Positions 8,401-40,017 of a stretch of 64,000 nt of DNA are shown piece after piece. Position numbers and translations under genes: made by a program. The DNA is from a virus, in the IMG/VR virus record IMGVR_UViG_3300008952_000004, positions 125,714 through 189,713 of that record; one strand, written 5' to 3'. The notes beneath the pieces were generated by a model. That model worked only from the letters and a program-made list of their open reading frames with translations, had not been told where the DNA came from and made no database searches. Position 1 is the first letter of the stretch. Each line of letters begins with the position of its first letter.

Positions 8401-8893
8401 GGTTGACAAAAGATTTACCGGACTTAAACATTTTTGGTCCGCAGCGGTTGTTGATCGTCCTAAAACCCGGAAGAAGTTACACGAAAACATTGAACTGTAT
8501 GAACCCGAAGGTGACTTTACTGATGAAGAGAAGATTGAATACTTGGTCAACCTAACCGGTGTCTTTCCCTTTGCGTTGGTGATGGACGATTACATTGAGG
8601 AACAGTTGGCTGACCACTGTGTCCCGCCGCTAGGAGACTGGGATCAGGACCTCGGCGTGGCGTGGTTCATTCCGCGTGAGGTGATTGAAAAGAAAACCCG
8701 GAAGGGTCGTACATATTGGCTAGTAAAGGTTGTCGACTCAACCAGTAAAAATACTACTATTAAATGCTGGGCGGTCGACCCAAAGAAGGATGTTGTCCAC
8801 CTTAATCGACCATACATGGCACGATTGGACTATAGCGATGACTGGGGATTTAGTACACGTTCAGTAAGATATAATTTTAAACTTTTAGGATAG
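5468..8893 (+). CDS. dnaE: DNA polymerase III alpha subunit (family C) with PHP domain
   Basis: LHAHS, TDHG, GRGSAAGSLV, YPDIDYD, HAGGVV, KFDILGL, IFQEQ, GYGFNKSHA motifs; C-terminal OB fold; 1141 aa, no intein-sized insertion. Confidence 0.97.
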   Translation: MSEQIQSSIPFVGLHAHSGLSLFDGLGYPQDHMDFAYKNGCDALALTDHGHMNGLSYQVLHAKKMKAAGKDFKPIFGVEAYFLPSVSKWKAAYEESKEAKKKQKKGGLVIEDENASKSAKSLLNKRNHLILLAMNQTGLNNIFRLISESYDGTNFYRYPRVDYDMLAVHSEGVIATSACLGGVYAGNYWDNKNDGPDAIMDAMRLTTEKMQSIFGDRWYGELQWNNIPEQHELNKYIIQVATEYGLELVSTADSHYPTPDAWRDRELYKRLGWLGKGGMPDWMSSELPEGIEEIGYELYPKNGDEMWAAYKKYSSGLNQQYDDDLVMASITRTHNIAHKRIESFMPDDTVRLPDFVVPEGKTAERALRESCVAGLREYIDANDPKLSEYIERIKYELDVIEDRGFTKYFLTMKTIADKALERQLVGVGRGSAAGSLVSFLIGITQVDPLKYNLLFERFMRKDQTDYPDIDYDVSDPMILKERLIEEWGDGTVVPISNFNTLKLRSLIKDIAKLYEVPFTEVNYVTSRMINEATPEAKKKHGIKAGVYVPTFDEVVEFSPTLQKFFDKYPDIKTHIEALHGQVRSVSRHAGGVVVGENLDKWMPLINSGGIRQTPWSEGQNVRHLEPLGFIKFDILGLASLRMMEGAIKHILRRHKGIAEPTFAQVKEYYDEHLHPDKINFDDQVIYENIFHKGKWAGVFQFTEKGAQTFCQKAKPTSIIDISAITSIYRPGPLSANVHELYVEAKTNPDEVSYGHDLIREVTEETYGFLIFQEQIALLAHKLGKDLTLDEGNMLRKLLTKKGTGSTDAKKIKIYNKFIEGCTDKGLSKSFAEGLWEKFEYFSGYGFNKSHAVSYSILSYQCAYLLHHFPSEWMAAFLDKEPEARKEAAINVAKSQGFTIAPLDINTSGTVWEISDDGNTLIQPLTSVKGLGDAAIEQIINHRPFGAIEELLFNEEIVYSKLNKKALDVLARAQALNDLVDKRFTGLKHFWSAAVVDRPKTRKKLHENIELYEPEGDFTDEEKIEYLVNLTGVFPFALVMDDYIEEQLADHCVPPLGDWDQDLGVAWFIPREVIEKKTRKGRTYWLVKVVDSTSKNTTIKCWAVDPKKDVVHLNRPYMARLDYSDDWGFSTRSVRYNFKLLG

Positions 8894-14065: not shown

Positions 14066-14386
14066 ATGGAAGCTACAGCTTGGAAAGAACAATATTGTGG
14101 ACCAAACGAATACTTGTATAGATTGCAAATTAATAATGTGTGTGGAAGATCTGAAAAGAAAATTCAAAAAATTGTAGAAGATTGGAGCAATTCTGGTCGA
14201 GGCTACAACCCAGGAAACCAGACGAGAATGCTTTTGTTTTCAAAAGTATTTGAATCAGAACAAGAATGGTTAAAATGGGCTAAACAATTTCCTTACAAGC
14301 TGATAGAATTAAACAGCAAGGGAAACCCAAAGAGGACAAAACTGGGCATCGATGCAATTAGCAAAAGTAAGAAGAAGGGCTCATAA
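14066..14386 (+). CDS. Hypothetical protein
   Basis: GAGGT SD, 106 aa. Confidence 0.6.
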   Translation: MEATAWKEQYCGPNEYLYRLQINNVCGRSEKKIQKIVEDWSNSGRGYNPGNQTRMLLFSKVFESEQEWLKWAKQFPYKLIELNSKGNPKRTKLGIDAISKSKKKGS

Positions 14387-15071
14387 TTTGAAATTTGCAA
14401 CAAAAAAAACAAAAGAAAAAAAAGAGAAGAAAGAAGAAGTTGTTGAAGAAAGCGACTCTTCTAACCTGCTTGAGTCTATCTTAATTGCGGCGCAGGATGA
14501 GAAGCCCAAACCTCAGTTGATTAACCTATATGGTGAAATAGATGAAGAGAAAATTGGTGATGTGACTTTTGCACTTCGTGTTATTAGTGGTCTTAATGTT
14601 CACGGTAGAGCAGTGCATGAGTCTTCTGGGAAAGATAGTGAATTTGAATCTACCCCGATTGAATTAATCGTTTCGAGCCACGGCGGCTCTGCCGCAGATA
14701 TGTTTTCGCTATATGATACCATAAGGTTTTGCAAAGAACACGACCGGACAGAAATTGCGACTACGGGCTTAGGTAAGGTTATGTCTGCTGGAGTACTTCT
14801 GCTAGCTGCTGGTACTAAGGGCAGGCGCCGCATTGGAGAGAACTGTCGTGTTATGCTGCACGGTGTTGCATCCGGTCACGTTGGTCAAATCCACAATTTA
14901 GAAAATGAATTGGATGAAGCCAAATGGACGCAAGATCGTTATGTGAAAGCTCTTGTCCGAGAAACGAATATGACTGCTCGATATATTAAAAAGCTTTTTG
15001 ACCGTCGGCAGAATGTTTATCTTACTGCCGAACAAGCCGTTGAGTTAGGCATTGCCGATGTGGTGTTTTAA
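14352..15071 (+). CDS. clpP: Divergent ClpP-family (S14) protease
   Basis: LYGEI, SSHGG, GKVMSAG (Ser), VMLH (His), YLTAEQAVELGIAD; start uncertain. Confidence 0.85.
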   Translation: MQLAKVRRRAHNLKFATKKTKEKKEKKEEVVEESDSSNLLESILIAAQDEKPKPQLINLYGEIDEEKIGDVTFALRVISGLNVHGRAVHESSGKDSEFESTPIELIVSSHGGSAADMFSLYDTIRFCKEHDRTEIATTGLGKVMSAGVLLLAAGTKGRRRIGENCRVMLHGVASGHVGQIHNLENELDEAKWTQDRYVKALVRETNMTARYIKKLFDRRQNVYLTAEQAVELGIADVVF

Positions 15072-16579: not shown

Positions 16580-18166
16580 TTGAGTAAGGTTTATAGTTCG
16601 AATAAAGTTCTTCAAGAGAAGATTTTAAAAGGTATTAATAAGTTGGCAGACAACGTTGCCAGCACCCTTGGTCCCAAGGGAAGAAACGTTATCCTTCATC
16701 AGAAGGGCAAGCGACCAATCATCACAAAGGATGGTGTGACTGTAGCGGAGTTTGTGGATTTGAAGGATCCGGTTGAAAATGCTACTGCACAAATTTTAAA
16801 GCAAGCCTCGGCACAAACAAACTCGGTTGCGGGCGATGGCACCACAACAGCTACAGTTTTGGCACGTGCAATATATACTGAAGCTTATAAATATTTGTCT
16901 TCTGATACCAGCCCAGTTGAATTAAAGAGGGGAATCGACAAAGCAGTTGAAGAGTTAGTTTTGAAACTAAAAGAAATTTCCATTCCAATCTCTAGTGTCG
17001 AGGATATTGAAAATATTGCTCGAATTTCTGCCAATGGAGATACAGCTATTGGAAAAATGATTGCCACGGCAGTTGATCAAGTTGGTAAAAATGGCGCAAT
17101 CACTGTAGAGGAGGCTCGCTCCCTAGATTCTAGCTTGGAGGTTGAAGAGGGTTTTCGATTCGACGGTGGCTTCTTTTCAACTCAGTTTATGACTGACGAG
17201 CGACGTGGTGTGGGTTCTTATAACGATGCACTAGTACTTGTCACTGATCAAAAACTGTCAACGGTTGATGAGCTAATGCCGGCACTAGAGCTAACTGCTC
17301 GCGAGTCGCGCCCTTTGATTATTGTTGCAGAAGAGGTTGAAGGGCAAGCATTGGCGGCATTAATCATGAATGCAGTGCGTGGCACTTTAAAAGTGATGGC
17401 TGTTAAAGCTCCAAGATACGGCGAAGAGCGAAGAAACATTTTAAAAGATTTGGCTCTGTCAATTGGTGCTTCGTTCGTGAGCAGAGAATCTGGAAAAAAG
17501 CTTCGTGATGCACAATTAAATGATTTAGGTCAGGTGAAAACTGTGGAGGCTTCAAAATATAATACAACTTTTGTTGGCGGTAGCGGCGAAAGAGCCAAGA
17601 TAGAAGAAAAAATTGAGTTGCTAAAAGAAGAAATTAAACAAACAGAAAATATTCATGAATGTGAACGTCTTCAAGAGCGTGTCACAAGGTTGGCAAGCGG
17701 AGTAGCCGTGATTAGAGTTGGCGCTGCAACAGAGGTGGAGATGATTGAGAAAAAGCACAGGGTCGAGGATGCTCTAGAGGCTGTACGAGCCGCCCGAATG
17801 GATGGTATTGTACCGGGTGGCGGCTGCGCGCTACTAGCAGCGCGAGAGTTGGCGCAGATCACAATTGAACACCCAGAACAAGCCCACGGAGCCCAAGCAG
17901 TGCTTGAGGCGGTGTCTGCTCCTATATGTCAAATGGCAGAAAATGCAGGTTTGTCACCAGATTTGACATTGGCTAGGGTTATGGAAATACAAAAAAAGAA
18001 CTCCTCAGCCACGATTGGCTTCAACTTTCGTACTGGAAAGATGGAAAGCCTTCAGGAATCTGGAATCATTGATCCTGTGCTCGTGACCATATCTGCGCTT
18101 CAAAACGCTGCTTCGGTTGCTTCAACTCTTTTAACCACAAATTATGCAATCATAGAAGAGGAATGA
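16580..18166 (+). CDS. groEL: Chaperonin GroEL
   Basis: TLGPKGRNV, ITKDGVT, AGDGTTTATVLA, KAPRYG, RVEDAL, GIVPGGG, GIIDP; TTG start; lacks the C-terminal GGM tail. Confidence 0.95.
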   Translation: MSKVYSSNKVLQEKILKGINKLADNVASTLGPKGRNVILHQKGKRPIITKDGVTVAEFVDLKDPVENATAQILKQASAQTNSVAGDGTTTATVLARAIYTEAYKYLSSDTSPVELKRGIDKAVEELVLKLKEISIPISSVEDIENIARISANGDTAIGKMIATAVDQVGKNGAITVEEARSLDSSLEVEEGFRFDGGFFSTQFMTDERRGVGSYNDALVLVTDQKLSTVDELMPALELTARESRPLIIVAEEVEGQALAALIMNAVRGTLKVMAVKAPRYGEERRNILKDLALSIGASFVSRESGKKLRDAQLNDLGQVKTVEASKYNTTFVGGSGERAKIEEKIELLKEEIKQTENIHECERLQERVTRLASGVAVIRVGAATEVEMIEKKHRVEDALEAVRAARMDGIVPGGGCALLAARELAQITIEHPEQAHGAQAVLEAVSAPICQMAENAGLSPDLTLARVMEIQKKNSSATIGFNFRTGKMESLQESGIIDPVLVTISALQNAASVASTLLTTNYAIIEEE

Positions 18167-21259: not shown

Positions 21260-21478
21260 ATGAAAGATGATTATCAACCAAAATACTCTGTTGGGTATAG
21301 CTATAGAATCGGTAATGTATTATACATAATTGAGAAAATTAAAGATGGGATGTATTATGAAAGAAGCTCGAATTTTATTGGCTATAGTTGTGTTCGTTGT
21401 GATGTGTTTGATTCCAATCACGGTTCTAGCGTAGCAGTATCTAGGGGCATCGGGCTACCATCCCATCCGGAGGCTTAA
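21260..21478 (+). CDS. Hypothetical protein
   Basis: 72 aa ORF in operon. Confidence 0.45.
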   Translation: MKDDYQPKYSVGYSYRIGNVLYIIEKIKDGMYYERSSNFIGYSCVRCDVFDSNHGSSVAVSRGIGLPSHPEA

Positions 21479-22395
21479 TGGTGGATCCACACCAGAGGTT
21501 TAAGTCTTACAGAGGTACGAAATGCTGGCAGGCTCATATCTCAGAGATTAATCGCGAAGATGATCTAAGGATCGCAAATCTTACGGAAGAAAACGTGGCA
21601 AAATTACGAATTAGCGATTTTGAATTTTCCTATGTTCCAAGTAATCAGAAGAACCTGTGCAGAGAAATTAAAGAGTTCATTGAGCGGCACGAGTGGCTTG
21701 CAAAACTTCCGAATCGACCAACACATAGATTCACAGTGAGGTTAAAAAAGAGTGGGGTTCTGGCAGGTACTATTATTATGGCTACACCCAATGCATTTTC
21801 AAACTTATTGGGAAAAGAAAATCGGGACAAAGAAAAATTAATTTCCCGAGGTGCCTGTATTTCTTGGGGTCCAAAAAACCTTGGTTCTTGGCTGATCATG
21901 CAGTCCATTAGATGGATGGTTCAAAACACCAACTTTCGCTACTTTACAGCATATTCCGATCCGGAGGCTAAAGAGCTTGGTACCATATACCAAGCATGTA
22001 ATTTTCATTATCTAGGGCAGACAAGCGGAACAACTTTTCAATACTTAGACCCAGATCACCCTGAGAAGGGTTGGTTTAGTGATAGGGAATTTCGCAAGAA
22101 ATCAAAATATTATCGTTATGCCGCAGCTATTGGAATCGATAAAGAAACTTGGAAAAGTTGTATGAAAAAATATTCTCCAAACTGGGATGTTATTCCTCCG
22201 AATGTAAAAGTTAAAATTAAAGCAGAGGAGGCAAAATATAGAGACAGTTGTATAAAACGCTCTGTACCCGCTAAACACAAATATTGCTATATTCTGGGTA
22301 AGGGAAAGAAAGAAACCAAAACCTTGCTTGAGAATTTCGCTAAAAATAGTCCAGGTAAACAAAACTTATCTTACCCGAAAAACAGGGGGAGTTAG
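21478..22395 (+). CDS. Mom-like GNAT-fold DNA adenine modification protein
   Basis: KEFIERHEW, ISRGAC, LGSWLI, AYSDP..E.GTIYQACNFHYLGQT match the Mu Mom family pattern (SYAD...GTIYQA.NW.Y.G). Confidence 0.75.
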   Translation: MVDPHQRFKSYRGTKCWQAHISEINREDDLRIANLTEENVAKLRISDFEFSYVPSNQKNLCREIKEFIERHEWLAKLPNRPTHRFTVRLKKSGVLAGTIIMATPNAFSNLLGKENRDKEKLISRGACISWGPKNLGSWLIMQSIRWMVQNTNFRYFTAYSDPEAKELGTIYQACNFHYLGQTSGTTFQYLDPDHPEKGWFSDREFRKKSKYYRYAAAIGIDKETWKSCMKKYSPNWDVIPPNVKVKIKAEEAKYRDSCIKRSVPAKHKYCYILGKGKKETKTLLENFAKNSPGKQNLSYPKNRGS

Positions 22396-22429: not shown

Positions 22430-22457
22430 TTGACATTCCGCGCCAGATGCTTATAAT
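22430..22457 (+). promoter_or_regulatory. sigma70-like promoter of hsp20
   Basis: TTGACA-N16-TATAAT. Confidence 0.75.
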
Positions 22458-22463
22458 ATAGAT

Positions 22464-22531
22464 AAGCCATCAACACCGCTATTAGGGTGTAATGGCTTTT
22501 GTAACTTGCTTTAAAAGGAGAAAACAAAATG
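22464..22531 (+). promoter_or_regulatory. ROSE-like RNA thermometer candidate in hsp20 5' UTR
   Basis: 5' hairpin AAGCCAT..ACACC/GGTGT..ATGGCTT plus CUUGCUU able to pair with the AAGGAG SD with a bulged G. Confidence 0.55.
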
Positions 22532-22981
22532 ACAAATGCAGCACTTACAACCTATTTCAATAGACGACCGAGCCTTGTTGGCGAGAATGTCTTTAATGAG
22601 TTTTTTAACGGAATGTTTCAAGACATTCCAACTTTGGTCAAGCAGACCACACAGGGATACCCCGTCACTGATATCTATGAGGACGAGACTGGTAACACAG
22701 TCTTAGAATTCGCCTTAGCTGGCTTTCAAAAGGAGAATGTGCATGTCACAGTAAATCCAGAGAAAAATAGAATTGACGTCAGTTCTGATAGTCATGGTGA
22801 TGAGGACAGTTCAGCGCTGAAAACTCGTAGGATTGCTCGGAGAGCTTTTCATAAGACGTTTGTAAATTATAATAATAATTTGGATTTAGCAAAGGTATCT
22901 GCGTCGTTCGAGAATGGGTTGTTGCGCGTTACAGTGCCGGTACGCCCGGAAGCTGAACCGTTAGTTGTTAAAATTAAATAA
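22529..22981 (+). CDS. Small heat shock protein Hsp20/IbpA family
   Basis: GYPVTDI, LEFALAGF, RRIARRAFHKTF, ASFENGLLRVTVP alpha-crystallin motifs. Confidence 0.92.
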   Translation: MTNAALTTYFNRRPSLVGENVFNEFFNGMFQDIPTLVKQTTQGYPVTDIYEDETGNTVLEFALAGFQKENVHVTVNPEKNRIDVSSDSHGDEDSSALKTRRIARRAFHKTFVNYNNNLDLAKVSASFENGLLRVTVPVRPEAEPLVVKIK

Positions 22982-23007
22982 AATTATTACAACTTTTATA
23001 TTATAAT

Positions 23008-23045
23008 AAAGGGGGACGGAATCCGTCCCCCTTTTGTGTTTTTAC
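23008..23045 (+). terminator. Intrinsic terminator
   Basis: GGGGGACGG-AAT-CCGTCCCCC stem followed by TTTTGTGTTTTT. Confidence 0.85.
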
Positions 23046-23088
23046 CTTTCGAAAGAACTAATTATTAAAGTTAGTAACAGGAGCCCAC

Positions 23089-23352
23089 GTGATGATAATA
23101 ACAAAACAAGTCTTAAAAGAGATGATAGTCGAAGAGATACAAAAAAGTCTTCTAAGCGAAGAGATAGCCGAAGAGGCAGATCCCGCTCAGGCATATGTTG
23201 ATTGGATCGTTGCGATTCAAGAAGCTGCTACTGAAGCTTTAAAAGAAGTTGAGAGCGGCACCGAACCTTATGAAGCTGCATTTAGCTCTCGACTAAACCA
23301 ATTGGCGTTCGGCTTAACTGGTGAAGATTTTTACCACCACTACTTTAGCTAG
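23089..23352 (+). CDS. Hypothetical protein with class B leader
   Basis: (M)IITKQVLKEMIVEE; AGGAG SD. Confidence 0.65.
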   Translation: MMIITKQVLKEMIVEEIQKSLLSEEIAEEADPAQAYVDWIVAIQEAATEALKEVESGTEPYEAAFSSRLNQLAFGLTGEDFYHHYFS

Positions 23353-23363
23353 GAGAATAAATA

Positions 23364-24296
23364 ATGGGAAAGAAAAGACTTACAGAAATTGCAGTTAGGG
23401 AGTGGGCTCAGTATTTGCGCGAGGCAGAATCTGCCACTGCTGCTGCCAGTGAGGCAGAAGTCACTGCGACTACTGATTTATCTGATTTGCATAAAAAAGC
23501 AAAAGATGCTCACAAAAATCGGGGTAAGGCTCTACAGGACCTAGCCTCTGCTGCTGAAGTTGAGAAAAAGGTTGCAACTGACGCCCAGGCAATTGAGGGC
23601 GATCGCGCTAATGCCTATAAAGCTGCCATTACGGCAAGGGACACCTCCAGTGATTTGCGTGATCAAAACAGCAAAGCAAACAAGAAAAAAGAAGATATTT
23701 TAAAAAGGTCAGCCGATGCACAAGAAAAGAAGGCGAAGGCTGATGAACTTAGCGCCAAAGCCGCAGAAGCAATTGCAAAATCGGCTGAAGAAGTGGCTGA
23801 TCTTGAAAACACAATGGCGAAAATTAACTCTCAATTTGAAAAAGCAAATCAAGAATTAAATAAAGCATCTGAAATGTTTGCAGATCTGGATAATCAAGCC
23901 GCAGACATATCAAAGCAGAAAGCCGCTGCTGCTGAGCAGCGCAAATCTGCTCAAGAGCAAGCAGCGACCGCTGCTGAGGAAGCAAGCAAGTTGAGCGATG
24001 AGTTCCAAAAGGCACATCAAGCATCTGCTGACGCTGCCGAAGATACAGCAACAGCTATAGAGGATGATGAAGAAGCCGAAGAAGCGGAAGAAGAAGCCGA
24101 AGAAGAGGAAGAAGAAGAGGAAGAAGAAGAGAAAGAAGATGAGGAGCAAGAGAGGGAAGAAAAAGAAGCAGATCGGCAAGCGGCAGACGAAGAAGCTGCG
24201 GAAGAAGCCGAGGAAGAAGCTGCGGAAGAAGCCGAGGAAGAAGCTGAGGAGCCTGATCTAAAGGATATTAAGGAGATATTTAAGAGATATCTATAG
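23364..24296 (+). CDS. Ala/Glu-rich coiled-coil protein with acidic tail
   Basis: AGGAG SD; N-terminal LTEIAVREWAQYLRE; poly-Glu C-terminus. Confidence 0.75.
   Translation: MGKKRLTEIAVREWAQYLREAESATAAASEAEVTATTDLSDLHKKAKDAHKNRGKALQDLASAAEVEKKVATDAQAIEGDRANAYKAAITARDTSSDLRDQNSKANKKKEDILKRSADAQEKKAKADELSAKAAEAIAKSAEEVADLENTMAKINSQFEKANQELNKASEMFADLDNQAADISKQKAAAAEQRKSAQEQAATAAEEASKLSDEFQKAHQASADAAEDTATAIEDDEEAEEAEEEAEEEEEEEEEEEKEDEEQEREEKEADRQAADEEAAEEAEEEAAEEAEEEAEEPDLKDIKEIFKRYL
24189..24246 (+). repeat. 24-bp tandem repeat (about 2.4 copies) encoding EEAAEEAE
   Basis: GAAGAAGCTGCGGAAGAAGCCGAG repeated. Confidence 0.85.
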
Positions 24297-24302
24297 AGGT
24301 GA

Positions 24303-24611
24303 TTGATGCGACGTCGTGCAACAAACCAATATAAAAATTTAAAATATTTAGTATATTTTTTACTCATGGTTGCATTTTGGACAATGCTATTGTGTGGTCC
24401 AATGGTCGCTAATGGAAAAACCGCACCGCCAAATTCTGCCAGATCTAAATTTTATGACTTTAGTGAGCAGTTGATCGACGGTGAAATAAAAAAGCCAACT
24501 GCTCTATATACAGACGCCCGCGCCCGCGCAAAATTCGAACGACTTTTAAGACTCAAGAGATCATTTATGAGAGAATTATTCAATACAGCAAAAGAAAAAG
24601 TTTTTAAGTAA
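24303..24611 (+). CDS. CglF/GltF-like (myxobacterial gliding motility) exported protein
   Basis: Signal/TM segment then DFSEQLIDGEIKKPTALY..R..FERLLRLKRSFMREL, matching the recalled CglF pattern DFxDxxVEGELxKPxxxY..RxxxxFxxLIxxRxxFxxEL. Confidence 0.65.
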   Translation: MMRRRATNQYKNLKYLVYFLLMVAFWTMLLCGPMVANGKTAPPNSARSKFYDFSEQLIDGEIKKPTALYTDARARAKFERLLRLKRSFMRELFNTAKEKVFK

Positions 24612-24627
24612 CGCAAGGAGATAATAA

Positions 24628-24747
24628 ATGTCTAAATATGACGATTTGATGCATAGTTATACTGTTGCCAAAGCGGCTGAAAATATTGATTGGTCCTCTG
24701 AATCTGGCACCACCAAGTTAATCGCTTGCACTTATCACGCGGGGTAG
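24628..24747 (+). CDS. Small hypothetical protein (39 aa, absent from ORF track)
   Basis: AAGGAG SD, ATG 24628, TAG ending 24747. Confidence 0.5.
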   Translation: MSKYDDLMHSYTVAKAAENIDWSSESGTTKLIACTYHAG

Positions 24748-24751
24748 AAAA

Positions 24752-24928
24752 ATGAAATTGCCTGACATGAAACAAGTTTTAATCGCCTGCGTGGGTATCA
24801 ATGTTGCCCTCCTTGCCGGAGGTTTAGCCTTGGAGGACTACCAACTCGTAACACTGGCAGTGCTTTCAGGAGCTTCTTGCTTGCTGGGCATCCGTGTTAG
24901 AAGGCAGATCGACGAGGAGCAGGAATGA
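24752..24928 (+). CDS. Small two-TM membrane protein (58 aa, absent from ORF track)
   Basis: MKLPDMKQVLIACVGINVALLAGGLAL..LVTLAVLSGASCLLGIR; stop overlaps next ATG. Confidence 0.55.
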   Translation: MKLPDMKQVLIACVGINVALLAGGLALEDYQLVTLAVLSGASCLLGIRVRRQIDEEQE

Positions 24929-25530
24929 AACTTATAATGGAAAGCTTCAGGAAGTTTATTAACGAGGCTCCAATGGAGTTGTCTAAAACGACAGGTCTTT
25001 ATGTGGAAGATTCTTTTATCGCTGTTTATGATTATTATGCGATGAGGGCATCAATTAAAAGATCTTTGGGCAGCGAAGAGCACATGGAGAAAGTAGGTAA
25101 AGCGATTCTCGGTGCTATGCGCTTGGGCTTTCGCTCTGGAAATATGGTTGTTGAAGAAGTATGGGCACAGAAAGGCTACGGACCACTCCTGTACAGGCTT
25201 GCTCTTGAACAGTCTTCGCAGCACGGGTTAGCCCCATCCAGAGTCAAAGGCGAGGTTTCCGATGCTGCGTCAAGCGTGTGGAAGGAATTCTATGACGGCA
25301 AGGGTGCCGAGTACGCAAAACACAAACCGGCAGAAGAACAAATCCACGGGATAGAGTGGCTGGATGCTGTTTATTATCCCACCAGTACAGTTCAAGGTAA
25401 GGACACATCCGTTGCTTTGAATAAAAAAGTTTTTAACAGAACCTCTGATCCTTACGAGGAGTTGGAAACGAATTTTCTTGAGATTGCCCACTCAAAGTTG
25501 CGAGACGAAATGTCAAAGGTGGGGTACTGA
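24925..25530 (+). CDS. Class A leader + GNAT-like domain
   Basis: MKLIMESFRKFINE; AQKGYGPLLYRLAL..VSDAASSVW resembles the acetyl-CoA-binding loop. Confidence 0.6.
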   Translation: MKLIMESFRKFINEAPMELSKTTGLYVEDSFIAVYDYYAMRASIKRSLGSEEHMEKVGKAILGAMRLGFRSGNMVVEEVWAQKGYGPLLYRLALEQSSQHGLAPSRVKGEVSDAASSVWKEFYDGKGAEYAKHKPAEEQIHGIEWLDAVYYPTSTVQGKDTSVALNKKVFNRTSDPYEELETNFLEIAHSKLRDEMSKVGY

Positions 25531-26594
25531 TGAAGCTAATAATGGAAAACTGGCGCAGGCACTTGAATGAGATTACCTCTGTTCCGCAGGAGCATATGCA
25601 AGCTTTTAAGGATGCTATAGCCGATTCCAAATTTTGGACGCTCCCACACACTGAAGATGAAATAGACATAGGACCAGCAGAAGAGCTTACCACCCCCGCT
25701 GTTGAGGCTTTGGCTAATTCTTTAAACGATGTTGCCGAAGCCTTGGGAACAGAAATATATTTTCTTTTTACCACGATAAGCGAAGAGGAATATGCGTTGG
25801 GACCGGATAGTCCATATCCCGGCTACCCAAACAACTGGCTGATGCAGGGTGCATATCAGGGACCACAAAAGGGAAAGCATGTGGTTTGGTTTCAATTTCG
25901 ACCGCTAGCTGAAGACTTCGAGATGGCTAAGCTTAATTCCGAGGCTCTGGTTAAGGTGTTATCTCAAACTTTAAATCATGAGCTTGTGCACTATTATCAG
26001 CTTAAAAAGCAAGCTGCAAACAAAGGGATCAGCGACGAAGAAGCATGGGCTGAGCTTGAAAAGGATCCAAAGCAATTGCCACAAGACGGCGAGGAGCAGA
26101 CTTACCTTGGCTTGCACAACGAGATAGATGCATATGCCCATGAAGCAGCAGAGCAACTGTTGGACAAACACTCGCCAGAAGAGGCGCTGGATATAATCCG
26201 AAAGCTGTCGGCAGATAACTTAGAAAAATATCCAGAAATATCTTCGGTTGTTAAAAGATATGTGGAAGTCTTCAAGAGTGATCCAAAAACACTGGACAAA
26301 TTCCGAAAGAAGCTGGTTAAACAGATTGAAAGCCAGTCGGGTATGCAGGAAATATTTAATAATTGGCGAGGGTATTTAAAAGAAATGATTGATTTGGACA
26401 TTGAAGTAGGGGATGTGATCCTCGGTGGGAAATATAAAAATAAAAGAATGATCGTCAAGGACATCGGCGAAGATGAGTTGGGGCAGCCAACCGTAAATGG
26501 GAAACCAATTTTAAAATTCAGGATTGAGAAATTTTTGCCCGACGAAAAAAAGAGCAAGAAGACACTTGATGCGGAGAAGGAGAAAGACGAATGA
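25530..26594 (+). CDS. Class A leader + HExxH metallopeptidase-like domain + internal leader + C-terminal beta module
   Basis: MKLIMENWRRHLNE; LNHELVHYYQ..NEIDAYA; internal MQEIFNNWRGYLKE at 26343. Confidence 0.7.
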   Translation: MKLIMENWRRHLNEITSVPQEHMQAFKDAIADSKFWTLPHTEDEIDIGPAEELTTPAVEALANSLNDVAEALGTEIYFLFTTISEEEYALGPDSPYPGYPNNWLMQGAYQGPQKGKHVVWFQFRPLAEDFEMAKLNSEALVKVLSQTLNHELVHYYQLKKQAANKGISDEEAWAELEKDPKQLPQDGEEQTYLGLHNEIDAYAHEAAEQLLDKHSPEEALDIIRKLSADNLEKYPEISSVVKRYVEVFKSDPKTLDKFRKKLVKQIESQSGMQEIFNNWRGYLKEMIDLDIEVGDVILGGKYKNKRMIVKDIGEDELGQPTVNGKPILKFRIEKFLPDEKKSKKTLDAEKEKDE

Positions 26595-26881
26595 AATTTC
26601 TAATGGAAAGATGGAAAAGGTTTGTGAACGAGAACGAAGTCTACGACCAGAAGAGCTACGACTTGGGCTTGTCCAACGAAGACGGCACCAGAACTCAATC
26701 CGGCAAGCTTCTAGGGAATATCGCAAAGAGAGGACGAGAAGGTTATACCCCATCTGCGGGGCAAAAAACGATTCTTTCCATTCTCAGTGATGAAGGCTTG
26801 ATCAGTTATGGACTTCACCCTATGGGCGGCTCAAGAGCAGTCATCACTGATAAAGGACTAGACGCATTGTCTGGTATATAG
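26591..26881 (+). CDS. Class A leader + small domain (possible winged helix)
   Basis: MKFLMERWKRFVNE; LSILSDEGLI..ITDKGL. Confidence 0.6.
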   Translation: MKFLMERWKRFVNENEVYDQKSYDLGLSNEDGTRTQSGKLLGNIAKRGREGYTPSAGQKTILSILSDEGLISYGLHPMGGSRAVITDKGLDALSGI

Positions 26882-26898
26882 AAGAAGGAAAAAGAAGA

Positions 26899-27351
26899 AT
26901 GAAACTTATAATGGAAAACTTTAGGAAATTTATTAAAGAGGCACAATGGGGAGGCTTTACTGGAGGCGCCGCGCCATTAGATGAACCAGCACCAGACAGC
27001 GGAGTTGTCCCTCCCGAACAGCTAAGAAAGATGTGGGAGATCTATATTGAAATGGGTATGAGCCCCGAAGAGATTTTACAAACCCCAGAGTTTGTTGAAG
27101 CTGGGATTACCGATCCCGAGCAATTGCAAGAAGCAATCACTCTTGATATTGAAGTCGGAGATATTGTTCTCGGCGGCAAGTATAAAAATAAAAGAATCGA
27201 GGTCAAAGAGATTGGCACAGATGATATTGGTCAGCCGACCATCAATGGCAAATCGCTTTTAAAATTTAGAATTGAGAAACAACTACCAGACAGCAAAAAG
27301 AGCAAAAAAACGCTTGATGCGGAAAAAAAGGAAGAGGGGTCAAAAGAATGA
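26899..27351 (+). CDS. Class A leader + C-terminal module paralogous to that of 25530-26594
   Basis: MKLIMENFRKFIKE; LDIEVGDIVLGGKYKNKR..GQPTING..LKFRIEK. Confidence 0.75.
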   Translation: MKLIMENFRKFIKEAQWGGFTGGAAPLDEPAPDSGVVPPEQLRKMWEIYIEMGMSPEEILQTPEFVEAGITDPEQLQEAITLDIEVGDIVLGGKYKNKRIEVKEIGTDDIGQPTINGKSLLKFRIEKQLPDSKKSKKTLDAEKKEEGSKE

Positions 27352-27929
27352 AGAAAATACTAACAGAGTGGCGTAAATATGCCATGAAAGAAGCTTACTA
27401 TGGGGGCGTACCGGGCGAACCAGAAACGCCAGCAGGGTATGGAGGTGCGCTTGACGCAGCGAAGGCTCAGCAACACTTGAGCGATGAGATCGATGACCTA
27501 GTTCGTTTGGGCAAGATAGATATTAATGACTTGTCCGTTGAAACCCTCAGAGCAAATCAAGAAATCCCGTGGGATAAATTTCAAGCCATTGACGATGAAG
27601 TTTTAGGAGATATCATTCGAGACTATCAGAGGAAAAAGAAATTTTATAGAGAGAGTTTGCAAGAAGAACCGCGTGGAGTCTCAGACTTACTTAAGTCGGC
27701 AGAGATGATCCGGTGGCACCTTGGAGCGCTTACAAATGATGCGGGGGACTTGGCTATGCTCACGCAACAACATCAAGAAACCATTGATGAGCTTTTAGCA
27801 GGGCAGAATTTTGAAGAAGCTGTCAAAGCCCTTGAACCCTATATTGAAAAGCTGGGACCATTGGCTCAGGACATCGCGACTGCCCATAAAGATCTTCAGC
27901 TTTTGAAAGACTCACTCAAGGACGGCTAG
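27348..27929 (+). CDS. Class A leader + helical hypothetical
   Basis: MKKILTEWRKYAMKE. Confidence 0.65.
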   Translation: MKKILTEWRKYAMKEAYYGGVPGEPETPAGYGGALDAAKAQQHLSDEIDDLVRLGKIDINDLSVETLRANQEIPWDKFQAIDDEVLGDIIRDYQRKKKFYRESLQEEPRGVSDLLKSAEMIRWHLGALTNDAGDLAMLTQQHQETIDELLAGQNFEEAVKALEPYIEKLGPLAQDIATAHKDLQLLKDSLKDG

Positions 27930-27932
27930 CCC

Positions 27933-28592
27933 ATGAAAGATATAATGGAACAATGGAGAGAGTACTCCAGCGGAGACGCGACACAAACCCAATTAGATGA
28001 AGGGTTGATCGACGACGCCATGTCATGGGTCAAAGAGAAGGGCGCCGCAGCTAAAGAGGCGACCATAGATTTCTTTCAGAAGCTCAAGGTTGAGCTTGGT
28101 GAAACTAAGGAAGGCGCGCTTTTATTGGCTAAAATGGTGCGAGGCGAACAGCTAACGCCAGAAGAAGAACAAGCACTCACAACACAGGCTCAGGACATCG
28201 GCAAGGGTCTTCCACTGTTGGCAATATTTGTCTTGCCGGGAGGTGGCATAGCTGCTGCAGCGTTGGTGAAGTTAGCAAAGAAGTTTGGCGTCGACTTGAT
28301 GCCCACAGCATTTGCTGATGAGACGAATGAAAGCCCTATAAAAGAACGAGCAGTCAACGTGGGACCTATCTGGCGAAAATTTAAACCAGAGTTGCAAGCT
28401 GCCATGGCTGAGTTCATGACGTCATACCTCGCAAACCAGAATGAGGTGGAAGGCTTAGAAGATCTCAATCAAGAGCGTCTGGTCACGGCTATGACAACGG
28501 CTGCTACGTCTGAAGTGTCCAAGGTGTGTCTGGTCGTGAAAGCAACGCCAACCAAACACGGGATTCTGAACGCTGGGAAACAAAATAAGTGA
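27933..28592 (+). CDS. Class A-like leader + LETM1-like membrane segment
   Basis: MKDIMEQWREY; LTPEEE..DIGKGLPLLAIFVLPGG..LMPTAF resembles the bacterial LETM1-related motif. Confidence 0.6.
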   Translation: MKDIMEQWREYSSGDATQTQLDEGLIDDAMSWVKEKGAAAKEATIDFFQKLKVELGETKEGALLLAKMVRGEQLTPEEEQALTTQAQDIGKGLPLLAIFVLPGGGIAAAALVKLAKKFGVDLMPTAFADETNESPIKERAVNVGPIWRKFKPELQAAMAEFMTSYLANQNEVEGLEDLNQERLVTAMTTAATSEVSKVCLVVKATPTKHGILNAGKQNK

Positions 28593-29155
28593 AATTAATA
28601 ATGGAAAGTTGGCGAGGCTTCTTGAACGAGGGATCCAAAGAAACCATTGTAGCATTTTTCGGTTCCTCTGGCTCTGGTAAGAGTCACGCTAAGAAATACT
28701 TTGTAGATCAAGGCTGGCGCGAGATTAGAACCAACTCCACCCGCCCGCCAAGAGGGGCGGAGGATAAAGAATATAATTTCTGGTCCGAAGAAGAGTTCAA
28801 AGAACTCATGGACGCTGGCAAGCTCGTTAATACGAATGAATATCAAGGAAACTGGTATGGTACTCACGTTGATGATCTTAACGAGCCGGGTTCAGCCGTG
28901 ATGCTTACAGACACAACCAGCTTGGACAAGCTCAAGCAGGTAGCCGGGGATCGCCTTACCCTTGTGTACACCGCCCCACCTTCAGACGCAGAGATGGAAA
29001 AGAGACACAAGGATCGTGGCACACCAGAACGACTGGCAGTTGCAGCCGCTGAGAAGGAACGGGATACTGCCGAACTCGCGGATCGCGGCGACGTACTGAC
29101 CGTCAACAACCAACAAGAAATTGAAGATTTAGAGCAGCAATTGCGGGCTTTTTAG
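28589..29155 (+). CDS. gmk: Class A leader + guanylate kinase-like protein
   Basis: MKLIMESWRGFLNE; GSSGSGKS, STRPPRGAE..EYNF, EYQGNWYGT GMP-binding motifs. Confidence 0.8.
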   Translation: MKLIMESWRGFLNEGSKETIVAFFGSSGSGKSHAKKYFVDQGWREIRTNSTRPPRGAEDKEYNFWSEEEFKELMDAGKLVNTNEYQGNWYGTHVDDLNEPGSAVMLTDTTSLDKLKQVAGDRLTLVYTAPPSDAEMEKRHKDRGTPERLAVAAAEKERDTAELADRGDVLTVNNQQEIEDLEQQLRAF

Positions 29156-29212
29156 GCACTGACGCTCTACTTAGACCAACGCCAGAAGTGGCTGCAAAAT
29201 AGGAGGTAGAAC

Positions 29213-29347
29213 GTGGAATACTTTATTGTTTCCCCCAATCATCAGGAGCTATACGAACAGATCAAAAAGATCGTGGTTGACTGGAATATGGATCACCGAA
29301 TCAAAGTCGTTAAAAGTGCTCAAGGCTCTCTTTGCGAAAAAAAATAA
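29213..29347 (+). CDS. Small hypothetical protein (44 aa, absent from ORF track)
   Basis: AGGAGG SD, GTG start. Confidence 0.5.
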   Translation: MEYFIVSPNHQELYEQIKKIVVDWNMDHRIKVVKSAQGSLCEKK

Positions 29348-29469
29348 TTATTTTTACCTTAAAACCTCTTTTAGAAGTTTCAGCACTTAATTAATAACAG
29401 GTGTGTAAGACTATTCGCACCGCCTAATCCAATGAATTAGACTTTAAATTAATAGGAGAGCGACTATAA

Positions 29470-30093
29470 GTGGCACTAAAGGTCAAGGCTAAATACATAT
29501 TATCTTGGTTGTTAGCTACCAGCTTTATGTATTTCCTTGTACAGTTTGTCGTTACTGATGATTACTCTTTCATGATTCCTGCTGATCACGTGGTACCTTT
29601 CATTCCGGAATTTATATGGATATATCATACGCTTATGCCGGTTATTGTGATTAGTACTATCTTTTCAATGGAGCGCCGGGATGTGTTTTTTAATACTTTG
29701 CTGGCGTTAACGTTTTCTGTAATAATTTTAACTGCTTTTCATATTCTCTTTCCATCGTTTTATCCACGACAAGAAATAGAAGCTGACTCATTATCTCTGA
29801 TGCTGGTGGAGTTTACGAGATTGGTGGATGCTTCCTGTAACACTTTTCCGTCCGGTCATGTAACGTTTGCTTGGATCCTGTACTTTTGTATTAGAGACGC
29901 AAATTGTTTAAAAAGAACAAAGGTTCTCCATCTAGCCTACTTACTATGGGCTATATTAATAGCCGTGTCTACAATTGTACTAAAGCAGCATTATTTATTC
30001 GATGTTGCCGCCGGGGTTTTATTGGCTTGGTGCAGCGTGGTTGTGGCAAAGAGAACAAGAGGCGGCTTTATAGGTGGAAAACGACACTCCTGA
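29470..30093 (+). CDS. PAP2-superfamily membrane phosphatase/phosphotransferase (AUR1/IPC synthase-like)
   Basis: Multiple TM helices, NTFPSGHV and STIVLKQHYLFDVAAG motifs. Confidence 0.85.
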   Translation: MALKVKAKYILSWLLATSFMYFLVQFVVTDDYSFMIPADHVVPFIPEFIWIYHTLMPVIVISTIFSMERRDVFFNTLLALTFSVIILTAFHILFPSFYPRQEIEADSLSLMLVEFTRLVDASCNTFPSGHVTFAWILYFCIRDANCLKRTKVLHLAYLLWAILIAVSTIVLKQHYLFDVAAGVLLAWCSVVVAKRTRGGFIGGKRHS

Positions 30094-30700: not shown

Positions 30701-31034
30701 TTCTAAAATAAAGAAGGCAACTGACGATGCTTGTCGACAGCTAACGCAAGGAGCTTTAATAAGATACCTCGATATTTATAGTGTCGCCATCGAGGATACG
30801 CTTAAAACTCAATATGACCTTTCAGCATTACCGAAAGATTGTGTTGGAATGGTGGTTGATGTGTTCGCGGCTTCTTCTTGGGATCCAACAACTAATCAAG
30901 AAGAGGTTTTTTGGAATTATGAAATATACAGGACCGAAGGCTTTAGAGAAGTGATAACGAGTGAAGATATTTCTTGGCTCTTGAAAGAGGGGCACTTCGA
31001 AATACTTTGGTCACCGGAGAAAAACAATGAGTGA
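30690..31034 (+). CDS. Hypothetical protein
   Basis: GAGGTG SD before ATG 30690. Confidence 0.55.
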   Translation: MKISSKIKKATDDACRQLTQGALIRYLDIYSVAIEDTLKTQYDLSALPKDCVGMVVDVFAASSWDPTTNQEEVFWNYEIYRTEGFREVITSEDISWLLKEGHFEILWSPEKNNE

Positions 31035-31470
31035 AATAGTTATGGACCGGACCAAACTTAAAATACCTTGCGAGCCGGTTACTAGTTTAGAAGAGGGCAT
31101 GGAAATCGCAAACCGCCTTATTCAGATTCTTGATAGACAATCTAATGCTGTTGGGTTGGCAGCGAATCAGGCGGGTATAAACAAACAGGTGTGTGTTATC
31201 AGGGTCGATCGCACGCTAATTTTAATAAATCCTGAAATAGTTGATGTGTCTGGAGAGATTTCTTATACTGAGGGGTGCTTATCGTTTCCGAATGAACAAG
31301 TCGCGACAAAAAGATTTTTTTCAATTTCTGTTAAAGCCGATAATTATAAAGAAATTCAGAGTTTTATACCAAACGGTCCAAACAGTCTGTTGGAATGTGT
31401 TTGTATACAACATGAAGTTGATCACCTGATGGGGTTGACGATGCACGATCGCGCAAGGGAGGATGTGTAG
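31027..31470 (+). CDS. def: Peptide deformylase
   Basis: GLAANQ, EGCLS, QHEVDHL motifs. Confidence 0.93.
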   Translation: MSEIVMDRTKLKIPCEPVTSLEEGMEIANRLIQILDRQSNAVGLAANQAGINKQVCVIRVDRTLILINPEIVDVSGEISYTEGCLSFPNEQVATKRFFSISVKADNYKEIQSFIPNGPNSLLECVCIQHEVDHLMGLTMHDRAREDV

Positions 31471-36234: not shown

Positions 36235-36437
36235 AAATTGGCGACCTAATTAGAATAAAAGAATATGGCAGCAGGTTTGCGCCGAATGGTACAGTGGGGA
36301 TAATCATTAAGAAGTTACCCAAGTGGAACCCTCATCATCTTTATCACCAGTGTTATGAGGTACGCTTTAACAATGGGCATATCGGTCGGCATGCTCATTT
36401 CTGCCTGGAGATAGTCAGTGAAGGTTTTCAGAAATGA
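36231..36437 (+). CDS. SH3/KOW-like small protein (MKVGDLV family)
   Basis: MKIGDLIRI..GIII..YEVRF..LEIVSE. Confidence 0.7.
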   Translation: MKIGDLIRIKEYGSRFAPNGTVGIIIKKLPKWNPHHLYHQCYEVRFNNGHIGRHAHFCLEIVSEGFQK

Positions 36438-37719
36438 TGAATTTTGGAGAAAGATCCCATTGTGGGCTGATGTGGATTATAAAACTTTTATCGACCATCG
36501 CTGGCAAGAAAAGAATGCAATAACGAATCATAAAAAACTTTTAAACACAATTCAGGACTTGGTTAGTACAGACTTTTTAGAGGATGCCAAAGAAGGATTA
36601 CTCAGGGCGCCAATGGCAACACGTATCACTCCCTATCTTCTTTCTTTAATGAATTGGGATAGTCCAGCGGAGTGTCCCATAAGAAAACAATTTCTAACCC
36701 TTGCATCACATCTTCAACCTGACCATCCAATGTTAAGATTTGATAGTCTAAATGAACAGAAGGATTCACCAGTAAAAGGATTGACCCATCGCTACGAAGA
36801 CAAAGTTTTATTTCTTGCTCTCGATACATGTCCTGTGTATTGTCGTTACTGCACTCGTGCTTACGCAGTTGGTAACAGCACGGCAGCAGCAGAAAAAGTG
36901 TCTATCAAAGCCTCTAGAGACAGATGGGGAGACATATTCGAATACTTGCGTATCCACAAAGAAGTAAGGGATGTCGTGATATCTGGTGGAGATTCGTTTC
37001 GCTTGAAGGCTTCACAAATAAAAGAGTTGGGTGAAAACTTACTCAAGATAGAGCACATCAGGCGCTTCCGTTTCGCGACTAAAGGCTTGGCAATTATGCC
37101 TATGAAAATTTTAACTGACAACGACTGGACAGATGCAGTCTGCGACATTGTTGATAAAGCTAGGCAACAATATAAAGAGGTTTGTATACATACACACTTC
37201 AACCACTCAACCGAAATAACTGAGATCACTCAAGACGCTATGAATCTTTTGTTTTCTAGAGGGGTAAAAGTTCGTAACCAGTCAGTTTTTCAAAATGGGG
37301 TTAACGATACAGTGGAGAGTATGGTATCCTTGGTTAAGGACTTGAGTCATATTAATGTACAACCGTACTATGTGTATGTGCATGACTTGACAGGAGGCAC
37401 TGAGGATATGAGAACGTCAGTTCAAACGGCAATCAAGGTGGAGAAGTCGGTGCGAGGTGTTACCGCAGGGTTTAATACACCGCTGTTTGTTGTCGACGCC
37501 CCTGGTGGTGGTGGGAAAAGAGACGCCCATTCGTATGAGTGGTACGATAAGTATAGTGGGATTAGTGTTTGGGAGGCTCCAATGGTTAAGCCCGATCAGA
37601 AATTTTTATACTTTGATCCCTTGCATTCTTTGCAAGAAAATGCTAAGATGGCTTGGATGAATAAAACAACACGTGAGGATATGATTCAACACGCCTTACA
37701 GAGTCGGAGTTACGCATAA
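36418..37719 (+). CDS. kamA: KamA-family radical SAM protein (lysine 2,3-aminomutase-like)
   Basis: THRYEDKV, CPVYCRYCTR, VISGGD, HTHFNH, NQSV, PYYVY, DAPGGGGK (PLP lysine). Confidence 0.9.
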   Translation: MKVFRNDEFWRKIPLWADVDYKTFIDHRWQEKNAITNHKKLLNTIQDLVSTDFLEDAKEGLLRAPMATRITPYLLSLMNWDSPAECPIRKQFLTLASHLQPDHPMLRFDSLNEQKDSPVKGLTHRYEDKVLFLALDTCPVYCRYCTRAYAVGNSTAAAEKVSIKASRDRWGDIFEYLRIHKEVRDVVISGGDSFRLKASQIKELGENLLKIEHIRRFRFATKGLAIMPMKILTDNDWTDAVCDIVDKARQQYKEVCIHTHFNHSTEITEITQDAMNLLFSRGVKVRNQSVFQNGVNDTVESMVSLVKDLSHINVQPYYVYVHDLTGGTEDMRTSVQTAIKVEKSVRGVTAGFNTPLFVVDAPGGGGKRDAHSYEWYDKYSGISVWEAPMVKPDQKFLYFDPLHSLQENAKMAWMNKTTREDMIQHALQSRSYA

Positions 37720-38625: not shown

Positions 38626-40017
38626 ATGAGTGATGATACTCCAAAGTCTACTTTGTGCTGTTCTTTTTGCGGAAAGAGCAGGAAACAGGTTATGACGCTT
38701 ATTGCAGGTACCCGCGTTTATATTTGTGATGAATGTATTGACCTCTGTGCTGAGGTTGTGGAAGACGAGCGCGAGCGAAAAGATACGACTCATCAAAAGG
38801 AAGATTGGATACTTCCGACCCCTAAAGAAATATTTGACCAACTTGAAGAGTATGTTATTGGTCAAACTGAGGCTAAAAGATTATTATCTGTAGCCGTCTA
38901 TAATCATTATAAGCGCGCTGCAATCAACCACAAAGTGAAAGCTGCCGAACGAAAGAACAAAAAACGTCATAGAAAAAAGAAGGTTGACCCAAACCATATT
39001 GATCTAGAGAAGTCCAATATCCTTCTGCTGGGACCAACAGGTTCTGGTAAGACATTACTAGCAAAAACGCTAGCGAAGATCTTGAATGTTCCGTTTGCAA
39101 TTGCTGATGCGACGTCCTTGACCGAAGCGGGATATGTGGGCGAAGATGTTGAGAGTATTTTACATTATTTGGTTCAAAACGCAAACGATGATGTGTCTCG
39201 TGCAGAGCGCGGCATTGTCTACATCGATGAAATTGACAAGATAACTAGAAAGGGCGAAAATACCTCAACAACGCGAGATGTTTCAGGCGAAGGTGTACAG
39301 CAGGCTCTTCTTAAAATTATAGAGGGTACTGTTGCTAGCGTATCTCCGAAGGGCGGACGAAAGCATCCAAATGCAGAATCTATCAAAGTTGATACGAATA
39401 ATATTTTATTTATTTGCGGCGGTGCCTTTGGCGGAATTGAGGATCACGTTGCTGAGCGTTTTAAAGCAAAAGGTGGGCAGGCACTTGGCTTCCTCAAGGG
39501 AGAAGCTGAAGATGGACAGGAACAGATCAACATCAAAGATATTGATAAGGACAGAGTGTATGAATTGGTCGAGCCATCTGATTTGGTTTCCTATGGTCTA
39601 ATATCAGAGTTCATTGGGAGAATCCCTGTTTTAGCTCCGCTTGAAACACTCAGCGAAGAAGCGTTCTTAAAAATCTTAACCGAACCACGTGGCGCCATCA
39701 CGAAACAGTATCAAAAACTCTTCGAAATCGATGGTATAGAGTTGTCTTTTACAAAGGATGCACTTGCCGCCGTTGCAAAAGAGGCTATAAAGAGGGAAAC
39801 TGGTGCGCGTGGACTGCGGGCAATATTTGAATCAGCCATGGCAGATGTTATGTTTGATGCCCCAACAGATAAAGAAAATATTGAGAAAATAACCATTACA
39901 AAGGAGGTGATCACAGATAAGGCAGAGCCCGATATAATTTGTGTATCACCAGACCAGAACGATATGGGCGATATTGAATCAGACCCAGACGTCATCGTAG
40001 AAATTAAAAAAAGTTAA
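38626..40017 (+). CDS. clpX: ATP-dependent Clp protease ATPase subunit ClpX
   Basis: CSFCG..ICDEC zinc-binding domain, [36 protein letters not shown] loop, TGARGLR. Confidence 0.97.

Follow-up and report, generated by a model that had tools for sequence, protein, structure and literature searches.

Why should seven consecutive phage genes begin with nearly the same 14-residue leader and then continue into proteins that are, for the most part, unlike one another? This question is raised by positions 24925-29155 of a 64-kb stretch of viral DNA (the window), which is the last 64 kb of the 189,713-bp IMG/VR contig IMGVR_UViG_3300008952_000004; positions are those of the window unless they are marked as genome positions, which refer to the whole contig. 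In an initial annotation, the leader had been read as a portable address tag that takes enzymes into the phage head and is clipped by the prohead protease. The comparisons of predicted proteins that are described here show the tag to be portable, swappable between two classes, confined to phages of this type and often encoded in the head-gene cluster, and they make it probable that the leader is a capsid targeting propeptide of the T4 type.

The contig was rated complete by CheckV. It encodes a gp21-type Peptidase_S77 prohead protease (genome 92210-92815; PF03420, 4.3e-37; phrog_207, 1.7e-55), a gp23-type major capsid protein (PF07068, 1.8e-58) and tail sheath, tail tube and baseplate wedge proteins. 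The closest cultured relatives of the capsid protein belong to Flavobacterium phage immuto (48%), Microcystis phage Mel-JY01 and Rhodothermus phage RM378. This uncultured marine T4-type phage is thus, as judged from its predicted proteins, a distant member of the T4 superfamily, and the relationship to immuto makes marine Bacteroidota the likely hosts of tag-bearing phages. The N-terminus of the capsid protein shares motifs with the T4 gp23 propeptide when the two are compared by eye and has an LRE/A site where T4 has LTE/A (here and below, the slash marks a known or putative cleavage point); the S77 protease would be expected to cut the capsid protein at this LRE/A.

The seven-gene array and its cargo

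The array is made up of the following features, in which open reading frames (ORFs) are referred to by their first position and lengths are given in amino acids (aa).

24925..25530, plus strand: tagged gene 1, leader MKLIMESFRKFINE/A and a 187-aa GNAT-like cargo
25530..26594, plus strand: tagged gene 2, leader MKLIMENWRRHLNE/I, HExxH domain (residues ~15-270), internal leader relic and mini-domain
26343..26384, plus strand: internal leader-like copy MQEIFNNWRGYLKE within gene 2, ahead of the mini-domain
26591..26881, plus strand: tagged gene 3, leader MKFLMERWKRFVNE/N and an 82-aa orphan cargo; profile match E 1.3e-6
26899..27351, plus strand: tagged gene 4, leader MKLIMENFRKFIKE/A, Pro/Gly-rich linker and mini-domain (27124-27336)
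27348..27929, plus strand: tagged gene 5, variant leader MKKILTEWRKYAMKE/A and a helical orphan cargo; profile match E 6.5e-6
27933..28592, plus strand: tagged gene 6, shortened leader MKDIMEQWREY and a cargo with a hydrophobic stretch; profile match E 6.8e-7
28589..29155, plus strand: tagged gene 7 (GTG start), leader MKLIMESWRGFLNE/G and a guanylate-kinase-family P-loop kinase

All seven ORFs of the initial annotation were recovered as consecutive plus-strand ORFs with the same starts. Their leaders follow the pattern MK[LF][IL]ME.[WF][RK].[FHY].. and have the 14-residue consensus MKLIMENWRxFLxE. The genes are tightly packed, in tandem and translationally coupled, and sites that resemble Shine-Dalgarno sequences were found 6-14 nt upstream of each of the seven starts. 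A six-frame regular-expression scan of the whole 189,713-bp genome found the core as an ORF start at the seven places of the array only, the nine other loose matches being internal or out-of-frame stretches without the remaining leader. A search of the same genome with a leader profile (A3, 15 columns) returned exactly these seven as well, with E values from 3e-9 to 6.5e-6. The leader is strongly amphipathic: for five of the seven, less than 5% of the shuffled sequences reached the observed hydrophobic moment. The proposed closing protease motif, [LIVM]-x-E, was found at residues 12-14 in five leaders and at residues 13-15 in ORF 27348 (MKE); ORF 27933, the exception, is considered below with the other difficulties.

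In the case of ORF 28589, the guanylate kinase assignment was borne out by PF00625 (1.7e-13, residues 21-177) and phrog_1815 (3e-24, residues 17-183). As these profiles start at residues 17-21, the leader is an add-on that lies outside the family profile. The GNAT-like assignment of ORF 24925 is indirect and depends on a transitive match, i.e., a BLASTP E value of 2e-6 to the relative L038, which itself passes the Pfam Acetyltransf_1 cut-off; the motif QKGYGPLLY of this ORF aligns with its relatives. Its AlphaFold model had a predicted local distance difference test (pLDDT) score of 41.8, which was too poor for a fold search, and tblastn of the ORF against the phages collection gave no match. 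The LETM1-like domain that had been suggested for ORF 27933 was not upheld (E 0.01, below the cut-off).

The HExxH cargo of ORF 25530 (25572-26340, residues 15-270) belongs to a marine viral family with at least 144 homologues, in which H150, E151, H154, H196, E198 and D200 are invariant. The model of this ORF reached a pLDDT of 82.7, with the leader as a detached low-confidence helix. Searches with the cargo gave no Pfam or PHROG family and, in Foldseek against the PDB, nothing at E <= 0.001; the best match of a wide VIA-align search (Z 6.3) was on helical bundles, and the cargo may still have a zincin fold. In the protein atlas, the cargo fell among viral hypothetical clusters only, and LPD23 and SprT-like proteins, at 0.86-0.88, are to be taken only as a lead. 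What had been described as peptidase-like is thus confirmed at the level of the motif, which was checked in 41 homologues and is invariant there, but searches among peptidase families and folds gave no match. Most homologues of the HExxH part have a length of 265-290 aa and end before the internal leader copy; because of this, together with the presence of the copy itself, ORF 25530 looks like a fusion of two tagged genes. Its C-terminal 71 residues are 73% identical to those of ORF 26899 (E 2e-35), and so the earlier statement that the seven genes are alike in their leader only has to be corrected for this pair, which has a common mini-domain. Distant matches to the mini-domain were found in HTVC008M and in uncultured huge phages.

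The leader in other genomes and its second class

When a back-translated pattern, MK[LF]IME.WR, was scanned over IMG/VR, at least 120 loci were listed, while less than one chance match was estimated from the base frequencies. Since 107 of the 117 pattern matches lie within 30 codons of an upstream stop, they are considered to be N-termini. Positions that the pattern leaves free were also kept, with F or Y at residue 11 in 84 of 110 relatives, L, V, I or M at residue 12 in 73 and E at residue 14 in 67. In 72 of the 110, the Glu of [LIVM]-x-E stands at residue 14 or 15, and in 89 it stands within residues 12-20; the proteins diverge thereafter. The leaders make use of each of the six Leu and six Arg codons, so that selection acts at the level of the peptide and not of the DNA or RNA. 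Compared after residue 16, the 110 tagged proteins gave 48 BLAST clusters (32 singletons), and the Pfam families among the cargo included GNAT, M23 peptidase, guanylate kinase, zeta-toxin/AAA_33 kinases and C5 DNA methylase, among others. Together with the position of the leader outside the guanylate-kinase profile, this diversity agrees with the earlier description of a portable module on unrelated cargo. In L006, L012, L017, L041 and about 45 other loci, an in-frame ATG lies three codons upstream (M-S-[ED]-MKLIME..); in these relatives the true start of the protein may be three codons earlier, and the tag would then not begin at residue 1.

The tag is found in phages that encode a gp21-type S77 protease. 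An S77 protease was present in eight of the ten other tagged contigs, and the two without it are 15-22% complete. Five large tagged genomes have two to seven tagged ORFs each, mostly clustered, and some of the tagged phages are apparently larger than 300 kb, as judged from contig completeness. In 596 Gb of prokaryote genomes there were only five pattern matches, three of them seemingly due to chance. Another was on a 116-kb contig of a metagenome-assembled genome (MAG), which is probably a mis-binned phage contig because the same MAG carries S77 proteases on two contigs. At the locus L131, in a 2.8-Mb bacterial MAG chromosome (CP070664.1, WOR-3) that gave no S77 protease match, a 202-aa ORF starts with MKLIMENWRGYLAE; it may stem from a phage remnant or a misassembly, or it may be one of the rare copies in cells. 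A tblastn search of the phages collection with a 20-aa leader piece gave no match, the query being short and of little power.

The tagged genes of the relatives are often placed within the head module. In 44 of the 120 loci listed, the tagged gene directly follows a homologue of genome ORF 91242-91799, and the order in this main slot is portal, orf90410, ORF 91242, the tagged cargo, tm91809, protease and orf92812. In two other loci the tagged gene comes right behind the protease gene, and in another two right behind the capsid gene. The main slot, between the homologues of ORFs 91242 and 91809, is hypervariable (L006-L120, e.g., L012:8254-8859 and L043:8079-8828): it holds one tagged gene from at least ten unrelated cargo clusters, including the GNAT-like relatives of ORF 24925 (L038, L039 and L060). 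In the present genome, the slot is empty. Pfam and PHROG searches of the head-module ORFs 91242, 91809, 92812, 98382 (a scaffold-like protein, genome 98382-99362) and 86610 found no family, and for this reason ORF 91242 can be called core-like by its position only.

The HExxH family revealed that the leader of the array (class 1) has an exchangeable counterpart. Leader classes were scored on the 120 best of the at least 144 homologues; the regular expression gave 18 class 2 leaders, and P0049 and P0097 were added by eye. On this basis, 91 of the 120 have the class 1 tag and 20 have a class 2 tag, such as MKLSLADLREIILQEIILE/STAPD or MKITKKRLMQIIREEISLNE/ATE, while, of the nine other homologues, most are truncated and three begin with a longer N-terminal extension in place of a tag. 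In the alignment, the [LI]-x-E that closes both classes stands immediately ahead of the conserved part of the cargo, and conservation in the Glu column is at least 90%. The tags are regarded as interchangeable because either class can stand on one and the same cargo family and both end in this way. As the two peptides replace one another and have in common only an amphipathic N-terminus and the closing [LI]-x-E, they most likely do the same job. Class 2 leaders and related stretches were also found in the present genome:

23089..23352, plus strand: gene upstream of the array in the same gene string, class 2 leader (M)MIITKQVLKEMIVEE
23364..24296, plus strand: acidic coiled-coil protein whose leader-like stretch (..IAVREWAQYLRE/A) is a hybrid, recognised by eye and unscored by profile A3
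60921, 61223, 61720 and 62362: class 2 leaders
genome 86610-86927: untyped head-module protein, class-2-like leader MKMSKTRLLDIIREEIENISLFE/A, followed by the 525-aa ORF that lies ahead of the portal gene
genome 92812-93234: untyped head-module protein, class-2-like leader MKKEQIKETLKPIIKQCIKEVLFEE/G, directly after the protease

For ORF 23364, the related stretch that had been pointed out earlier, REWAQYLRE/A, does have the same W-x-x-Y-L-x-E spacing when inspected by eye, but it received no score from the profile.

Probable capsid targeting and the alternatives

Polymorphic internal-protein genes that bear a capsid targeting sequence (CTS) were reportedly described in T-even phages by Mullaney & Black in 1996. 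The T4 leaders, as read from NC_000866, are MKTYQEFIAE/A for internal proteins (IP) II and III and MKTFKEFTSTTTPVSTITE/A for IPI (of the form MKTFKEF..ITE/A). In IPIII, the first ten residues suffice for incorporation into the head and are removed by gp21 (PMC9026906, PMC5694885); within the CTS, residues 4 and 7 are important to targeting, whereas processing depends on residues 8 and 10 (PMC9026906). Apart from the CTS, the internal proteins of T-even phages are diverse (PMC3012670), and the gp21-related proteases all cut after Glu (PMC5694885). The class 1 tag resembles the T4 CTS in its MK start, amphipathic spacing, acidic residue 6 and closing [LI]-x-E before the mature protein, with hydrophobic or aromatic residues at positions 4, 8 and 11. 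Moreover, both are found on otherwise unrelated proteins, both occur together with a gp21-type protease and a gp23-type capsid protein, and in both the genes vary between relatives. The tag differs from the CTS in its length (14 residues versus 10), in the existence of two interchangeable classes in one genome, in its cargo breadth (at least 48 families among 110 proteins, compared with the three internal proteins and Alt of T4), in being placed on acidic enzymes and not on small basic proteins, and in filling a variable head-cluster slot in many relatives.

Other phages offer partial parallels. In the giant phages phiKZ, 201phi2-1 and SPN3US, a related prohead protease processes many of the proteins inside the head by cutting behind Glu, and paralogous cargo has identical N-termini and diverging bodies, as is the case for the tag (PMC5694885, PMC7411985). 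The propeptides of these phages, however, are mostly longer than 100 residues, family-specific and provided with an A/S-x-E motif, unlike a single short tag on dozens of families. The Dar proteins of P1 are similar to the cargo proposed here, as they are enzymes, including a methyltransferase-helicase, that are loaded into the head and delivered with the DNA (PMC9024508, PMC12810830). P1 belongs to another phage lineage and has another protease than the tagged phages. Its Dar proteins depend for their loading on a hierarchy of partner proteins and are not known to use a common cleavable tag.

Based on these likenesses, the following course of events can be proposed. The amphipathic N-terminal helix would dock the new protein onto the assembling prohead core, the gp21-type protease would cut after the Glu of the closing [LIVM]-x-E, and the cut would release the cargo within the head, where it may be kept as the head matures before it is delivered into the host. 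The segment 24925-29155 would accordingly serve as a cassette array whose cargo comprises a GNAT-like and an HExxH protein, a kinase of the guanylate kinase family, a small beta-rich module and orphans. The idea of a head-loading tag from the initial annotation is supported in part, namely by the portability and swapping of the leader, its closing motif, the S77 protease and the head-module position.

Several observations weigh against this interpretation. After residue 14, the seven cargoes are acidic, with computed isoelectric points of 4.5-5.8, compared with 9.0-9.7 for T4 IPI-III, and because of this difference from the T4 internal proteins, it is less secure that the cargo is retained and injected than that it is taken into the prohead. 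Housekeeping-type enzymes such as guanylate kinase are unexpected head contents. The leader of ORF 27933 has no [LIVM]-x-E at residues 12-14, its next site being LDE at residues 21-23, and about one third of the 110 relatives have no such motif at residues 14-15. There is no detectable sequence homology between the tag and the T4 CTS: at E <= 10, profile A3, which finds all seven leaders in its own genome, found nothing in immuto, Mel-JY01, RM378, HTVC008M or T4. As the cultured relatives (immuto, Mel-JY01, RM378 and HTVC008M) do not have the tag, no virion proteome applies to it. Additionally, the class 1 array has no exact copy of ACTATTTAT, the candidate late promoter that is described in the next section.

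The alternative that survives best accepts loading into the prohead but not injection. The cargo would serve head assembly, as core or scaffold accessories or as enzymes that act on the head or the incoming DNA, and would then be degraded or expelled, as happens with T4 gp22, gp67 and gp68. The acidity of the cargo and its neighbours is typical of scaffold and core proteins, and the commonest site of the tagged genes is the interval between portal and protease. At this position T4 keeps its protease-processed core proteins gp67 and gp68, a comparison that is one of synteny and not of homology. The internal [L]-x-E sites ahead of both copies of the mini-domain and a second [LIVM]-x-E inside the leader, at residues 4-6, also speak for this alternative. 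On the other hand, the cargo includes folded enzymes (P-loop kinases, GNAT, M23 peptidase and C5 methylase) that have no evident role in assembly, and its fast turnover, with ten clusters in one slot, is more typical of host-interaction genes. There is also the precedent of T4 Alt, an enzyme that is packaged, clipped and injected (PMC9026906). Taken together, we regard a purely assembly-related role as rather unlikely.

It is less likely still that the tag is a recognition peptide for another machine, such as a ClpXP degron, a site for a radical-SAM maturase or a docking helix for replication or nucleotide synthesis. The phage does encode ClpP, ClpX and a radical-SAM-like protein (36418-37719), a complex for nucleotide synthesis would be a suitable place for a guanylate kinase, and the class 1 tag fits a published N-terminal ClpX motif (Met-basic-hydrophobic x3-X5-hydrophobic). 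However, class 2 tags fall outside the ClpX pattern and yet replace class 1 on the same cargo, and the ClpX zinc-finger domain was absent from five of five other tagged genomes, three of which are complete. PF04055 passed its cut-off in two of the five tagged genomes, tens of kb from the tagged genes, and in the window the radical-SAM-like gene lies 7 kb downstream of the array behind unrelated genes. Such a machine would also leave the closing [LIVM]-x-E and the head-module position unexplained.

Finally, it is very improbable that the leader has no targeting role and is a relic of tandem duplication with divergence, or else a linker for translation start or recombination that is preserved as nucleic acid. 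The tandem, coupled arrangement and the ~88% DNA identity between the leaders of ORFs 24925 and 26899, which suggests copying within the genome, would suit it. However, the cargo families and folds are unrelated, and at least 110 proteins retain the peptide in spite of free variation in synonymous codons, which rules against a paralogue or a nucleic-acid signal. In addition, one or the other tag is present on almost all full-length homologues of the HExxH protein.

If the leader is a capsid targeting propeptide, as we think probable, its principle is that of the T4 CTS; what differs is the tag family with its two swappable classes, the breadth and the acidic, enzymatic nature of the cargo and the variable slot in the head module. 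A broader proposal, which we put forward tentatively and with considerable doubt, is that an interchangeable, protease-clipped tag code loads a large and fast-changing set of enzymes into the capsid and that the head injects them with the DNA, acting as a modular device for effector delivery. With the same reserve, acetyltransferase-like proteins, HExxH proteins, kinases, a methylase and a peptidoglycan hydrolase could be named as the enzymes that are loaded by this code, and the two classes might further specify different places, amounts or release times in the head. Were the targeting role true, it would become possible to predict from sequence alone which proteins abundant uncultured marine phages package in their heads, and T4, with its three internal proteins, would stand at the small end of a far more extensive system in which cargo is swapped. 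The analysis gives a concrete list of candidate injected enzymes, including the HExxH family without a known fold relative, with possible roles in host takeover or counter-defence. The targeting role would also mean that a natural tag of 14 residues, together with the protease that matches it, is at hand for bringing foreign proteins into the capsids of non-model phages.

Transcription signals and neighbouring genes

The motif ACTATTTAT(W) is strand-biased across the genome, with 19 copies on the plus strand and one on the minus strand. Copies stand 20-60 nt ahead of the genes for the tail sheath, tail tube, baseplate wedge and scaffold/capsid proteins, and also ahead of the class 2 array; the motif is a candidate for the promoter of virion (late) genes in this phage lineage. 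In the relatives, its core, CTATTTA, was found no more than 60 nt upstream of 32 of 109 tagged genes, compared with 67 of 956 other ORFs (odds ratio 5.5), a rough control since the background ORFs include spurious ones. Signals in this genome were as follows:

11386: ACTATTTAT site
60573: ACTATTTAT site of the class 2 array
genome 93465, 97771, 98335, 103979, 106926, 108655 and 112000: ACTATTTAT sites
23008..23034, plus strand: strong terminator-like hairpin with a 12-bp stem, eight G-C pairs and a T run

Two other candidates were rejected. The T4 late promoter TATAAATA was not enriched (eight copies on the plus strand versus about 12 expected) and was dropped in favour of ACTATTTAT. The one-mismatch copy ACTAATTAT at 23057, just after the terminator, was considered as a promoter of the class 1 array but was given no weight because one-mismatch copies occur at chance frequency (27 seen versus 23.6 expected).

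The hairpin at 23008-23034 is probably the upstream end of the gene string 23089-29155. Within this string, two small predicted membrane proteins (102 aa and 58 aa) are encoded at 24303-24928, between ORF 23364 and the first tagged gene. All long ORFs of the window are on the plus strand; a tRNA scan of the 64 kb found none, and blastn of 24000-30000 against GenBank phages gave no match. The phage encodes a DnaE-type DNA polymerase III alpha, ClpP (14352-15071), ClpX (38626-40017), a GroEL-type chaperonin, a peptide deformylase and a Mom-like protein; the genes of this set, in an order that is not matched to the names, lie at 5468-8893, 14352-15071, 16580-18166, 38626-40017, 31027-31470 and 21478-22395. 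An Hsp20-like gene (22529-22981) is located between a perfect sigma-70 consensus promoter, TTGACA-16-TATAAT (22430-22457), and the hairpin at 23008-23034, and, on the evidence of these predicted signals, is a self-contained transcription unit of the host type that covers 22430-23034.

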